Part shown: piece by piece, positions 15,560 to 48,175 of the stretch | How the letters are laid out: each line of letters opens with the position of its first letter | Position numbering within the stretch: position 1 is the first letter of the stretch | Source of the DNA: Stegostoma tigrinum | Lineage: Eukaryota | Direction: 5' to 3' | DNA: 64,000 bases | NCBI RefSeq assembly: GCF_030684315.1 | Contig: NC_081373.1 | Coordinates: 51,136,864-51,200,863, forward strand | Made by a program: the position numbers and the translations under genes | The notes under the pieces: model-generated | Told to the model about the DNA's origin: nothing | The model's input: only the letters and a program-made list of their open reading frames with translations | Databases searched by the model: none

Positions 15560-15848
15560 CAAGGCTAGCGGGCATATTTTTAAGGGGAGAAGGAAATAGA
15601 TTTAAAAAGGACATGAGGGGGCAACCCTTTTACACAGAGAGTGATTTGTGTGGGGAATGTACTTCTAGAGGAAGTGGTGCATGTGGGTACAGTGACAACG
15701 TTTAAAAGACATCTGGATAAGTACATGAATAGGAAAGGTTTGGAGGGATATGGGCCAAATGCAGGCAGGTGGGACTAGTTTGGCCATGGTCAGCATGGGC
15801 TGCTTGCATCAAAGGGTGTTTCTATGCTGTATCACTCTATGACTATAT
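15560..15848 (+). mobile_element. CR1 3' end (uninterrupted reference copy)
   Basis: ggataagtacatgaataggaaaggtttggagggatatgggccaaatg...ctgtatcactctatgactat. Confidence 0.85.
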
Positions 15849-24299: not shown

Positions 24300-24551
24300 C
24301 AACAAAGTAAGGCTTGCGACAGTTTCTGGGAGATTTGCTTGCACAGCAGTAGTGATCAGACGAGATCCTGTGGGGGATACACCACAAGTACCATTCTTTT
24401 CAGTTCTCTTATTGTTCAGACAACCATGAAGAGGGGCGAGTGTTTCCAAATCAGAAGATGCTATTGCTACACACACAGCCAATCACTGTCTGTTCCTCCA
24501 ACTCTCTCAGGAGCTCCCTCTGCATTTGACACAGGCAGCTGTTGTGTTTGT

Positions 24552-24565
24552 CCACTAGATGGAGC
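24552..24565 (+). promoter_or_regulatory. Candidate CTCF motif
   Basis: CCACTAGATGGAGC; motif match only. Confidence 0.3.
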
Positions 24566-25071
24566 AACACTGGGACACACTCTCCAGCTCCTTAGCTGCC
24601 TCAATGGAACATCACAAGAGCCGAGATTAACTGAGTCAGATCTGTGAATAGTAACTTCAAGAAGGATGTATTTTGCTGCTGCAGATATTAAAGTGTAACA
24701 GCACAATGAATGGGTAAGCAAAATAAATTGTTTGCTTTTGAAGGAAGGGGTCAGTTTCTCCAGTTGTGAGGCTGTTTGTATCTTGTGCCTGAATATAGCT
24801 GCAGCCAGTAAACAGCAGGCTACTCGATTAAGCTTCACACTACAGTCAATCATAATCATCTGGCACTGGTCAGAAAGCCCACCTGTCAGGACGGAGGACA
24901 GTCTTAGAACTGTACGAAGACTATCCTCCCACTCTAAAGGCAATGGTGAAAAAGGAAAGAATCGCCAAACTGGAAACTAAGTCGTGACTTGAGAATGACG
25001 CAGCCGACTTTCGCAGTCTACGTGGAAACATTTAAATTCGGAGCACGAGTAGGCAATTCAAACCTGCTACA

Positions 25072-25185
25072 GAGAGTCATGGAGACAGACCCTTTGGGTC
25101 CAAGCCATCCATGCTGACCAGATATCCTAATTAAATATTATCCCATTTGCCAACATTTGGCCCATGTCCCTCCAAACCCTTCCTA
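25072..25185 (-). mobile_element. Older CR1 3' end, left half of a split copy
   Basis: Ends at ...catttggcccatgtccctccaaacccttccta; the expected continuation appears at 28541. Confidence 0.85.
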
Positions 25186-25216
25186 CTTTTCCTACTTTTA
25201 TTTTCTACTTTTGTAG

Positions 25217-25261
25217 GAATTAATATCCTTGTGAAGTCCAAAGCATTCCAGTATGCCATGT
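25217..25261 (+). pseudogene. TPCN1: Isolated 45-nt exon of two-pore channel 1
   Basis: ttttctacttttgtAG | GA ATT AAT ATC CTT GTG AAG TCC AAA GCA TTC CAG TAT GCC ATG T | GTgagt = (G)INILVKSKAFQYAM(Y), matching the recalled vertebrate TPC1 segment KGINILVKSKAFQYFMY; phase 1-1; flanking exons not found in the window. Confidence 0.8.
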
Positions 25262-27139
25262 GTGAGTAGATGTGTTTCCTGATCAAATTGTCTTACTTAA
25301 TTGTGCTGAAAATTTTACAATGGAAGGGGTCAGTAATTTGGATTGCAACAAAGCTTTGCTGTAATAAAGTTTTGGTTAATGATATTCCGCCTGTGGCCGC
25401 TAGCGCGTTTAGTCCTGTATAGTGTGTGCAAAAATATCTGATCCAACTTAAATGTATAGCCTTAACATTTTATTGCTTTCTCATATTACATTTGTTCTAA
25501 CAGCAATAAAATTATTAAGACAATTTCTGGTATAAAAATGTTCACACAGACAAAATCTCCAATTGTTCGATTAAGTGAATAGTCTTCCTGCTGATCAAAA
25601 TCTAATTGTTTGTGGCAAAAATATACTTGTTTTCCTGCTGTGTAACTTGCTAGTTATATAGTCATAATGTGAATCTACAAACTATTAAACATTTATGGAC
25701 ATTGAGTCAGTGTTGTAAACTCCCTGAACACTACCAACTTTGGGCAATACTTGGGGCCAAGAACTTTTCAGTCATAAAAGTGGCATTCGTGTCAGTGAGT
25801 TTTGGAGTCTACCACATGTGCAGTCAGGCATAGAAATATTGAAGTACACCCTCCACCACTGACGCCGCCTCACTTTGCTCATCACAGCCAAGTAGAAACC
25901 TGTAAACTATGAGTTGTTCCCTTTTTTACACAATTAGTGTTGCCATAAAAATCCTTCCAAGTTAAATAATATTGTTGAATCAAGTGTAATTCAGTTTTTG
26001 ATGATGTAATAAATTCATGCTTACTGATGAAATCTAATTATATGTATGCAGAATATCGAATTTCTCCATTTCTGATTTTGAAGAAAAAGAAATTCCACCC
26101 TAATTTCTTTTTAAGATAAAACACGTTTTAGCTCCTACATTAATGCCATGGATACTCTAACTCCTTTAAAAATAATATTTGAAACATAAAGGACAATCAG
26201 TTGCAATTTACTTCCAGGTTTCAAATTTTGTGAGGATGTTTCAGTATGATAACCTGCTAATCTTGCAATACTTGCTAAACATCTAGAGAATTTTTGACTT
26301 AGTGCCAGATTCAAGATTCTTGATACCAAGAAGATAGCAATCTCAGTCACCCAGATTGCTAGGTCAACGTGGGTAGCTCTTTGAAATCAACAGTGAATGC
26401 TATCACCTCCATTAGCCAAGAAATCTGGGCCTTTTAAAAAAAAATCATAGTTTTTGATTGTTTCAGTAATAAAAATAGAAAATACTGGAACCATCTGCGG
26501 CCAAAATCTGATGACAGCAGAAGGGTCTCAGGCATCGGCAAGGGGTCCGATGAGATCTGAATATAACCTCTTTCTGTGTTTGCACAGTGCATCACGTGTT
26601 ACTAGGCACTTACCAGACCAGATCCCTGAGGGTGTAGGCCCTACCCATTAGGAACTGCGTCCAAATTTGTACCTGTCTGAGGCTCAGTTTTTGACTGGAA
26701 TCATGGGGAGCTGGTCAAGGAGGATGGAGTGGAGAGTTGGCAGGCAAGGAATGGTGGGTGTCCTCAGCACGTTCCCTTCTTAATATTGGATCTCTTAATC
26801 AGGCACTGAGAACCCTTGAATAATGGACTCTTGCCAGCCTTCTGGGAGTCTGCAAGCAACTTTGAGAACTGGATTAAAAACAGTCTCAACAGCATAATGG
26901 TTCTTAAGTGGGCATTAATTGGCAGCTTAAAGGGCTCCATGGCCGGGGGAAGGTTTGGGAGGCTATCCATAGGCATTTATGCCACAAAGTTAACTGGGAT
27001 AAAGCCAGGGTCAGCTCCCACCTGACTCTGGCAGAAAATACCTCCAGTGAGTAAAACAGAATTGACAAGCAGAATCTAATGCTTTCCAGGTGTGTAAGGA
27101 AAGTTATGTTTAATTAATTTATTGGAGTTCTTTGAAAAA

Positions 27140-27830
27140 GTATATTTTATTGAAAAGTAGATAAATGGAGACCAGCAGATGTGTTGTTTTTTGATTTCCT
27201 GAAGGCATTTGATAAGGTGCCACATCAAACACTATTGAGGAAAATAAAAGTTCGTGTTGTAAAAGGCAACATATTGGCATGGAAAGAAGATTGGCTGGCT
27301 CACAGAAAACAGACAGTGGGAGTGATGTCATGGTAGGATGTTGTGAGTGGTATGCCATAGGTTTTAGTGTGGGGGCCCCAACTCTTTGCAGTTTAAAGAC
27401 ATTATGTTTATGGAAGGATGTTAAAGCGTTGGAAGAGTACAGAGAAATTGTACTAGACTAATACCTAGAATGAAACGATTATGAGGAAAGAGGGCATAAA
27501 GAGAAGGCAATGGCCTAATGGTGTTATCAATGGATTGTTAACCCAGAGACCAAAGCAATGTTCTGGGGACCCAGATTCGAATCCTGTCACAGCAGATGGT
27601 GAAATTTGAAATCATTTTTTAAAAATCTGGAATTAAGAGCCTAAGTGATGACCATGAATCTATTGCTGATTGTCAAAAAAGCCCATCTGGTTCACTAATG
27701 CCCTTTATGAAAGGAAATCTGCTATCCTTATCTGCTCTGGTCGACAAGGGACTCCAGAGCCACAGCCAACTGAGCAATAAAAGCTGGCTTAGCCAACGAT
27801 GCCTTCATCCTATGAAGGAGTACAAAAAAA
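27140..27830 (+). mobile_element. Old CR1 fragment followed by a tRNA-derived SINE (27503-27830)
   Basis: gatttcctgaaggcatttgataaggtgccaca (DFxKAFDKVP); SINE matches the copy at 39528-39885. Confidence 0.75.
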
Positions 27831-28047
27831 GCCAAAACAAACCTCCCAATCTTCATTGAACCATCCTGTTATCCCCGCACAAAAAGGTGGATGACTCCCA
27901 ATCTAGGCCTCCTTCCCCTCCCACCTCTGCCATTGTCCCTGCTGCAAGATTCTCAGCTTAATTAGCGAGATAAATGTAGCACATTCTGCACATTCACTGG
28001 CATAACTGCACAGGACACATGAGCACCATGAAGCCCGTCAGAGACCA

Positions 28048-28540
28048 CTGGTCGCCCTATTATAGGAAAGATGTGGATGCTTTGGAGAGGGTTCAGAGGA
28101 GGTTTACCAGGATGCTGCCTGGACTGGAGGGCTTATCTTATGAAGAGAGGTTGACTGAGCTCGGTCTCTTTTCATTGGAGAAAAGGAGGAGGAGAGGGGA
28201 CCTAATTGAGGTATACAAGATAATGAGAAGCATAGATAGAGTTGATAGCCAGAGACTATTTTCCAGGGCAGAAATGGCTAGTACGAGGGGTCATAGTTTT
28301 AAGCTGGTCGGAGGAAAATATAGAGGGGATGTCAGAGGTGGGTTCTTTACACAGAGAGTTGTGAGAGCATGGAATGCGTTGCCAGCAGCAGTTATGGAAG
28401 CAAGGTCATTGGGGTCATTTAAGAGACTGCTGGACATGCATATGGTCACAGAAATTTGAGTGTGCATACATGAGGATCAATGGTCGGCACAACATTGTGG
28501 GCTGAAGGGCCTGTTCTGTGCTGTACTGTTCTATGTTCTA
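28048..28540 (+). mobile_element. Young 5'-truncated CR1/HER1 with open ORF2 C-terminus and (TTCTATG)-type tail
   Basis: Uninterrupted WSPYYRKDVDALERVQRRFTRMLPGLEGLSYEERL...FFTQRVVRAWNALP; ends tgttctatgttcta. Confidence 0.95.
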
Positions 28541-28715
28541 TCATATACCCATCCAGATGCATTTTAAATGTTGTAACTGTACCAGCCTCCATCACTTCCT
28601 CTGGCAGCTCATTCCATACACGCACCACCCTCTGTGTGAAAAAGTTGCCCCTTAGGTCCCTTTTAAATCTTTGCTCTCTCACCTCAAACCTATGCGCCTC
28701 CTGATTTTATAAACA
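28541..28715 (-). mobile_element. Older CR1, right half of the split copy
   Basis: tcatatacccatccagatgc...; minus ORF RGNFFTQRVVRVWNELPEEV...FKMHLDGYM. Confidence 0.9.
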
Positions 28716-45870: not shown

Positions 45871-46662
45871 AAATCATTTACCCCTCTTCACAACATCTAG
45901 CACTGCTCTGCATGATAATCAAGTAACTGATGACATCTTTGAAATGGAGCTCACGCAGCATCAGGAAAAAGAGCAAACAACAGAGAATCTCTGCATCCGT
46001 GGAGACAGAAACGGAATGAACATCTGGAGTTCAATAATCATTTTGCTTGAAACATTAACTTTTTTCTCTCTCTATAGATGCTGCCAGAGGTGCTGAGTTT
46101 CTCCAGCAGCTTCTGATTATATTTCAAATTTCCAGCATCATCAGTATTTTGCTTTTGAGTAACAAAGGGTGTAGAGTTTTGTGGTGCTGGTCCAGGCTCA
46201 TTGAGAATTGAACTGAAGTGGCCAAATACATCACATACAGTCAGCAGGCTGGTGCCACACAATTGGATTTGAATTTCAGTCGAAAAGATAGTGCTTTGAG
46301 ATGTCTTTGAATTACACTGTTAAAAACAAATGGAAGCACAATATTTTCTAACTTTTTGAGCAACTTCAGTTTTATCTTGTGAGGTCTTCCATAGGGCAAT
46401 ATCACTGATTAATCTTCAACAAGGGTAGTTAACACAAACAAAGCAATAAAAGGTTCAATTGGAGGCCCTGTGCATTTGGTCAAGAGCACTATTGGGTGGA
46501 CATGGAGATCTGAGAATTGGCACCATCTTTTTGTATGCTCATGGTTGAACCATGCTCCTAATAAATTAGGCTTCATCATGACAAGGTAAGATCAATGAAA
46601 TATCAGAAGGACAAAACTTGGATGGAAATCTCAACAAGTTTCATGCCCATAACAGATTGAGA

Positions 46663-47254
46663 GATAACCAAATCCCAGCGCGAGAGGCCCTGGGGTAGGG
46701 ATAACCAAATCCCAGCGCGAGGCGCCCCGGGGCAGGGATAACCAAATCCCAGCGCGAGAGGCCCCGGGGCAGGGATAACCAAATCCCTGCGCGAGAGGCC
46801 CCGGGGCAGGGATAACCAAATCCCAGCGCGAGAGGCCCCGGGGCAGGGATAACCAAATACCAGCGCGAGAGACCCCGGGGCAAGGATAACCAAATCCCAG
46901 CGCGAGAGGCCCCGGGGCAGGGATAACCAAATCCCAGCGCGAGGGGCCCCAGGGCAGGGATAGCCAAATCCCAGCGCGAGAGGCCCCAGGGCAGGGATAA
47001 CCAAATCCCAGCGCGAGAGGCCCCGGGGCAGGGATAACCAAATCCCAGCGCGAGGGGCCCCAGGGCAGGGATAGCCAAATCCCAGCGCGAGAGGCCCCAG
47101 GGCAGGGATAACCAAATCCCAGCACGAGGCGCCCCGGGGCAGGGATAACCAAATCCCAGCGCGAAGGGCCCGGGGCAGGGATAACCAAATCCCAGCACGA
47201 GGGGCCCCGGGGCAGAGATAACCAAATCCCAGCGCGAGAGGCCCCTGGAGCAGG
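46663..47254. repeat. 37-bp GC-rich minisatellite, 16 copies
   Basis: Unit gataaccaaatcccagcgcgagaggccccggggcagg. Confidence 0.97.
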
Positions 47255-48175
47255 TTTCATAAGTTTGTGATGAAATGTGGTAATTAATGCTTATGCATGT
47301 CATGTAAGTCCCATTTCAGATAATGGAGATGTTAAAATTTGATAAATTTGGTCTTGCGGGCTTCCATTCACTTTGTGCCACATCGGTGCTTCACTAGTAA
47401 TTGCAGTGTAACCGTGAGCAGTGAACTATAATAACTTTCCTCCTTTTGGATTTGGGAGTGACATGACCTTGTTGCAGGGAGCTGGAATTCTGCAGCGTCT
47501 GTACTGCTTTGTATTTATGAACTGGCATAATAATTGCTTCCGATCTTCCACTGAATTGGAAATCTGCGCCCTGTTTCTTCCCAGAGAGCAGTGAACTAAT
47601 TTGTTATCAATGACTGCACTTCCAGCTCATTCCTGAGACCAGCTGATGAAACACACTGATATCAGGGAGACAAAGGTGTCGTGATAATGTCACAGGGACT
47701 ACATAATCCGGAGTCCCTGGCTAACGCTCAAATCATATCTTGGCAGCTTATTTCAATGTAAAAAAAAATTAGGAATTGCAGTAAGTGCCAGCCTGATTAA
47801 TGGTGAGCCTGAATCAATTGTGATTTTAAAAAAGCCCTTCCAGGACAGAAAAGCTCAAGGTCAGTCCTGCAGTCTGAACAATGGTGTTTTAAACACAGAA
47901 CAAATACAACACAGGAACAATAACAGAAGTTGCTGGAAAAGCTCAGCAGGTCCAGCAGCATCTGTGGAGAGAAATAAATCAGAGTTAATGTTTCGGTTTC
48001 ACCCTTTGTGCCGATCATGACACCAAACAAAACTAATCCCTTCCGCCTGCCCCCTTGGTCCATATCCCACCATTTCTGGCCTATTCCTGTTGTTAACTGT
48101 CTGAGCTCTGTATCTGTGATGTAGGGAAACAACATTGCGAGCCCCAAACGAACTGTACCAAACCGAAAGAAGCAC

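Follow-up and report, generated by a model that had tools for sequence, protein, structure and literature searches.

The TPCN1 copy and its source

The window, by which we mean the whole 64,000-nt stretch of Stegostoma tigrinum DNA that was analysed, contains an older CR1-type 3′ untranslated region (UTR) that is split by a block of TPCN1 sequence ending in a young CR1 fragment (hereafter, the stub). Every feature named in an earlier reading of this DNA, made from the sequence only, was found, and the features are as follows.

15715–15823, plus strand: uninterrupted member of the host repeat family, which served as the reference in the sequence-only reading.
25070–25185, minus strand: left-hand half of the older CR1-type 3′ UTR (the insertion target); other copies match it at 74–91%, the matches ending at 25185.
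25186–25197, plus strand: junction filler of 12 nt, absent from the source and read from the sequence.
25198–25216, plus strand: end of the upstream TPCN1 intron, the last 19 nt of 783 nt, with pyrimidine tract and AG, delimited by the alignment start and a branch-site scan.
25217–25261, plus strand: phase 1-1 TPCN1 exon of 45 nt, unchanged relative to the source, with GTGAGT directly after it.
25262–28047, plus strand: unspliced downstream TPCN1 intron, the first 2.8 kb of 4656 nt, with older repeats.
28048–28541, plus strand: 5′-truncated young CR1 stub of 494 nt with a (GTTCTAT)2 tail at 28528–28541, also present in the source intron; four variants are common only to copy and source.
28541–28690, minus strand: right half of the split older CR1-type 3′ UTR; the T at 28541 is assignable to either the tail or the host.

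When positions 25186–25700 were used as the query against the 3.2-Gb assembly, two matches were obtained, namely the block itself and C34:30039686. The full alignment is colinear and pairs 25198–28541 with C34:30039686–30043037 at 98.16% identity, with 34 mismatches (34 substitutions per 3334 aligned bases) and 9 gaps. The copy comprises 19 nt of acceptor, the 45-nt exon, 2.8 kb of intron and the 494-nt sense CR1 stub, such that 2.85 kb of upstream source flank was duplicated along with the stub, at 98.16% identity. The source carries the same stub in the sense orientation, with a 5′ junction identical to that at 28048 in the copy. Further copies were sought with 25186–25700, 25700–27100 and 27780–28541 as queries (27100–27780 was left out), and the unique part was found only on C24, the contig of the window, and on C34. 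The colinear, high-identity match inside the real TPCN1 locus that had been predicted is thus present on C34, and the block is not the sole copy of its exon, the second match being the native locus. Of the ~30 nt of acceptor that had been described before the exon, 19 nt (25198–25216) derive from the source, and the other 12 nt (25186–25197) are junction filler. A match extending past the block had been named as a sign of segmental duplication; identity instead ends sharply at 25198 and 28541, and this class was rejected. A processed retrocopy was also rejected, given that the exon is flanked by intron at either end and that there is no poly(A).

Translation of the copied exon gives GINILVKSKAFQYAM, which matches residues 432–448 of mouse TPC1 (6c96_A, E = 0.029). 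Candidate plus-strand exons on C34 match the same protein at residues 179–220 (E = 3.6e-17), 413–433 (E = 0.027), 450–468 (E = 0.0039) and 511–546 (E = 1.7e-10). They stand in residue order around the copied exon, and the stub is in the sense orientation relative to TPCN1. Judged from these candidate exons, the C34 source locus is native TPCN1. There, the exon lies between the 783-nt upstream and the 4656-nt downstream intron, and the stub is flanked on both sides by an apparent ACTGG repeat, which would be a 5-nt target-site duplication (TSD). Neither a protein search with the exon frame, in which no match was scored, nor a search of a phage collection returned a match.

Reality and age of the insertion

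Read evidence was drawn from four runs, two from different samples of this species (X1 and X2) and two from a related species (X5 and X6). Depth inside the block relative to its flank was 37.6/20.9 (X1) and 10.3/5.84 (X2) in this species, and 11.1/10.8 (X5) and 12.8/10.5 (X6) in the related species; the ratio expected for two copies that are 1% apart is ~1.7, by arithmetic that assumes 31-letter words. These values show that two samples of this species hold two copies and that the related species holds one. Both the source and the direction of copying are regarded as established. Contigs from the related species extend ~2.6 kb beyond 25198 on the upstream side, in keeping with the native locus. 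They differ from the copy at 110 of 1928 and 91 of 1616 letters, which puts the age of the duplication at approximately one fifth of that of the species split.

An X2 contig covering 25158–25927 crosses the 5′ junction, with 40 letters to the left of 25198 and 28 to the left of 25186. Among the contigs listed, none bridges the 3′ junction at 28541, as might be seen if the block were a misassembly or belonged to a larger segmental duplication. Such an origin is, however, highly improbable, considering the sharp loss of identity at both ends, the 34 substitutions and 9 gaps that separate copy from source, the second-sample contig across the 5′ junction, and the depth ratios given above. An empty-site haplotype was searched for in the assembly and none was found. 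Joints of 25185 to 28541 were considered as an empty allele and rejected, as they are present in all four runs and derive from other copies of the host repeat.

The stub matches 38 family copies at 98%. These were picked by likeness to the copy, such that the sample is biased towards young elements, and they show 2–8 differences from the column majority over 494 positions. Four variants, located at 28262–28394, are common to the copy and the source and are combined in none of the 38. Since then, the copy has gained three private substitutions, and the source five substitutions and a 2-nt gap. The shared variants, together with the low divergence of the family, indicate that the stub was in the TPCN1 intron before copying and that copying took place while the family was active.

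Elements of the CR1 clade have an ORF1 with a GDSL/SGNH esterase, an ORF2 with an AP endonuclease and a reverse transcriptase (RT), and a short-repeat tail without poly(A), and on this layout the family is provisionally called CR1. A near full-length young member (L058:4630–9014), which lies in a tandem array, has kept a 327-aa ORF1 and a 900-aa stop-free frame for endonuclease and RT, with domains PF13472 (1.2e-13), PF03372 (8.9e-16) and PF00078 (1.5e-34). The length of the copy is feasible for this machinery, given that 4 of 36 measured family copies are at least 3344 nt long. Other members show an inverted segment near the 5′ end, resembling twin priming (L052), or internal deletions (L055 and L075). 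Nine places (L079–L086 and L099, on C828, C656, C624 twice, C151 twice, C110 twice and C10) are 99.8–100% identical over the 3.2 kb fetched, including 1.5 kb past the CR1 tail, and would be either a young CR1 in a multi-copy unit or redundant unplaced contigs. Over window positions 28126–28443, the depth of the CR1 subfamily relative to the flank in this species exceeds that in the related species by approximately tenfold or more, which suggests that the subfamily was amplified after the species split.

The target and the two ends of the copy

Host sequence upstream of the target (24310–25075) is single-copy save for one 47-nt match. In five host-repeat copies that match both halves (L057, L104, L044, L062 and L006), the bases matching 25185 and 28541 lie one base apart, which bears out the proposal that the halves were once contiguous. 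The target would thus have lost 1 nt and gained no TSD, unless the host copy in the window already lacked that base. An empty site reading CCTATTCAT would mean a 1-nt loss, and one reading CCTATCAT would mean a 3-nt TSD with a 4-nt microhomology. In this the junctions resemble those of other family insertions, most of which lack a clear TSD: just 7 of 49 have a repeat of at least 5 nt at both ends, compared with 2.7 in shuffles.

At the 3′ end, the copy stops at the last T of the (GTTCTAT)2 tail of the source stub. The source goes on with GACTGG past the tail, and the downstream ACTGG of the apparent TSD was left uncopied. Besides this pair, tails of the (GTTCTAT)2 type occur eight times in 373 kb of fetched DNA (~1 per 47 kb), and the arithmetic probability that either of two random breakpoints falls within 2 nt of such a tail is ~1e-4. 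The copied tail measures 14 nt, unlengthened relative to the source, and 38 of 49 family tails are at least 20 nt long. One tail (L103) has grown to 116 nt of (GTTCTAT)n; those of the other 48 copies measure 14–30 nt. Folding of the tail as a hairpin gave z = −1.42, with 20 of 200 shuffles as good.

At the 5′ end, the copy starts at −19; the source has a predicted branch-point A one base earlier, at −20, an observation that is new and first noted here. The source base before the copy is the A of TTCTAAT, the sole CURAY-type site between −12 and −60; given a TT microhomology, the start can be read anywhere from −19 to −17. The branch point was predicted from a degenerate motif, the consensus being that in part of PMC3064769, and 8 of the 11 TPCN1 acceptors scanned have a CURAY-type site at −20 to −33. 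The probability of a stop in a given 3-nt window is 0.0025 from the family length distribution, a value obtained post hoc. RT halts at the branched A of lariat intermediates, for which a window of −3 to +5 was used (part of 10.1101/331629). The template may have been a lariat–exon intermediate, with step 1 done at the upstream intron and the downstream intron unremoved; on the position of a predicted site, we put the odds of this at about even. The reading is confounded by the motif TTCTA, which is close to the target end in sequence and occurs both at +5 and within the tail.

Because the copy begins after the branch-point A, the exon moved without its predicted branch point. The claim that the splice sites travelled intact thus stood for the AG, the pyrimidine tract and the GT and failed for the predicted branch point, whereas the intact TPCN1-like exon was confirmed in full, its 45 nt being the same as those of the source. 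The copied exon is in frame and unmutated, which is uninformative on selection because divergence is just 1%. As for a host gene around the copy, none of 53 candidate exons matched Pfam, in a search that covered 53 of 64 window candidates and one CR1 frame and in which short exons could be missed. With no predicted branch point in the copy and no Pfam-recognisable exon in the window, the copy is probably inert and non-functional.

Probable copying of unspliced TPCN1 RNA from a CR1 tail

Stub and 5′ junction are the same at the source, and the copy ends at the last base of the tail, which argues for a 5′ transduction and not for a fusion of unrelated pieces. Presence of the stub at the source had been set out beforehand as the mark of read-through transduction. 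We consider it probable that CR1 RT, acting in trans on the stub tail, copied unspliced TPCN1 RNA. A dead 494-nt CR1 fragment would have lain in the sense orientation within a TPCN1 intron, and CR1 ORF2 protein would have bound its 3′ tail in trans on the unspliced transcript. A tail-like target on another chromosome would then have been nicked and primed with 1 nt of pairing, after which 3.34 kb would have been copied upstream until synthesis stopped, probably at the upstream intron's branch point. Annealing-type repair would finally have joined the 5′ end, giving rise to the filler. We infer target-primed reverse transcription from an internal tail, with a repair-type 5′ joining as the origin of the filler. 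Among insertions of ZfL2-2, ~40% have 5′ extra nucleotides, often flank-derived, and ~80% have 3′ microhomology (parts of PMC2666801 and PMC4245944). At L044, ~70–90 nt of extra sequence at the junction just 5′ of the element matches, at 92% and inverted, a segment 1.3 kb away.

The filler and its neighbours read as the 9-mer CCTACTTTT twice in tandem, composed of letters of the target end and of the source pyrimidine tract, and fillers of iterated microhomology repeats are typical of end-joining. In addition, TTCTA, which is similar to the target end (TTCCTA), occurs in the copy at +5 and at +3339/+3346 and once only in between, such that microhomology alone could choose both ends. A double-strand break at the target, repaired off C34 TPCN1 DNA through TTCTA-like microhomologies, would account for these features as well as for the lack of a TSD, the unaltered tail and the lack of an RNA-specific mark, and would render the tail and the branch point coincidental. 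This explanation is unlikely: the source region has 60 TTCTA sites in 39 kb, as against ~1 such tail per 47 kb, yet the pair used consisted of a sense tail and an acceptor. Furthermore, a better, target-like match, TCTTCTA, just across the predicted branch A in the source was not used as the copy end, and copying came later than the stub yet within the active period of its family.

Alternatively, CR1 RT might have started on its own RNA and switched by homology, within at most the last 147 nt, to the identical stub in TPCN1 pre-mRNA, which would have served as a landing pad and not for recognition. Such a switch would explain why the copy lacks two source-private changes beyond 28394, past the shared variants at 28262–28394, and it spares priming inside a long RNA. 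However, such private changes occur throughout the stub, and finding two of them in the last 147 nt is unremarkable. The copied tail also has the exact short length of the source tail, a length found in 5 of 49 family members. We regard a template switch as quite improbable.

For direct transduction from the stub tail, the proposal that CR1 RT primed on a CR1 3′ end and copied host pre-mRNA gains support from the source stub, although the RNA intermediate itself is inferred, the copy having no spliced junction. RNA-specific marks were sought in the copy, and no spliced junction, poly(A), editing bias or TSD was found; substitutions between copy and source were balanced with respect to A-to-I editing (A>G 7, G>A 7). 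The branch-point coincidence is the only pointer to RNA. Reading of the sequence revealed no polyadenylation hexamer near the source tail, and RT would therefore have to start within a longer or nascent RNA. More tentatively, CR1 RT may act on nascent, spliceosome-engaged nuclear RNA, with any one of the numerous sense intronic stubs able to license its host pre-mRNA and lariat branches ending the cDNA, a possibility that we hold to be doubtful. If the branch-point stop were to recur, it would mean that the enzyme meets RNA in the nucleus, during splicing.

The broader idea that intronic CR1 stubs move exons was examined at 55 distinct loci, chosen by likeness to the stub and not at random (38 of 10 kb and 25 new ones of 3.2 kb, nine of which are one repeated unit; 8 listed places were left out). 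Flanks could be rejoined at 22 loci, 9 by script and 13 by eye, and 33 were uninformative. None of the 22 informative loci had a kilobase-scale foreign 5′ extension, which bounds the frequency of further cases below ~14% (rule of three, 0/22). As to generality, then, the idea has one event in its favour and 0 of 22 informative loci.

The comparisons below draw on parts of the cited sources. In SVA and L1 5′ transduction, a transcript begun upstream carries the source 5′ flank, as observed for ~10% of SVAs and almost none of L1 (PMC4859970). The TPCN1 copy is similar in that the source 5′ flank was taken to a new site; unlike those cases, it involves the CR1 clade, no poly(A) or TSD, a promoterless non-coding 494-nt stub, and an unspliced exon with intron. 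In a survey of AluY, no transductions were confirmed (10.1101/2024.04.29.591526). The closely comparable feature of RAP1GDS1/L1PA2 promoter co-option (Law and Burns 2025, 10.1101/2025.02.02.635956) is an intronic LINE without a working promoter, mobilised through a host-gene transcript. There, the RNA was spliced from exon to L1 and both ORFs were kept, whereas here the intron is retained and the enzyme would have acted in trans; our copy also has a predicted branch-point 5′ end, and the words 'lariat' and 'unspliced' have 0 occurrences in the main text of that paper.

The related UnaL2 mobilises in trans any RNA with its 3′ tail, from the terminal repeat (PMC1636434), and stringent LINEs require their own 3′ tail (PMC4176376). 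In UnaL2/ZfL2 (PMC1636434, PMC4176376), as in the present proposal, a 3′ tail is recognised and priming takes place on a short repeat at the terminus; those systems are L2-clade and were studied in cell culture, by means of SINEs or of engineered constructs, whereas the template here would be a natural host pre-mRNA. Type-2 snoRNA retroposons of mammals are likewise retroposed intron-derived RNAs with one end near a branch point, but it is their 3′ end, and they are polyadenylated and come from the excised intron (PMC1687206). Here, by contrast, it is the 5′ end that lies at the predicted branch point, and the sequence continues into the downstream exon. Ejima and Yang are said to have described, in 2003, L1 trans-retroposition of an ATM orphan exon with flanking intron and without an element-tail terminus; the TPCN1 copy would resemble that case in moving an orphan exon and flanking intron through RNA. 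In the literature covered, we found no CR1 5′ transduction of host pre-mRNA and no retrocopies ending at a branch point.

The need for a CR1 tail has been cited as limiting retrocopy formation, and is usually invoked to explain why retrocopies are scarce in CR1-dominated genomes (part of PMC5470649). A dead intronic stub that provides the tail, with the host gene providing the transcript, is a likely way round this requirement, and a route by which a retrotransposon believed to copy nothing but itself could move host exons. Because its introns are kept, such a copy would be classed as a DNA duplication by standard retrocopy pipelines. If the more tentative reading is true, in which lariat branches end the cDNA, a class of retro-exons would have gone unrecognised in CR1-dominated genomes, each beginning one base past a branch point and finishing with a CR1 tail; screens based on intron loss would miss them, and they would constitute a fossil map of branch points. 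Elsewhere in the window, positions 46600–47315 form a tandem array with repetitive open frames on the minus strand.
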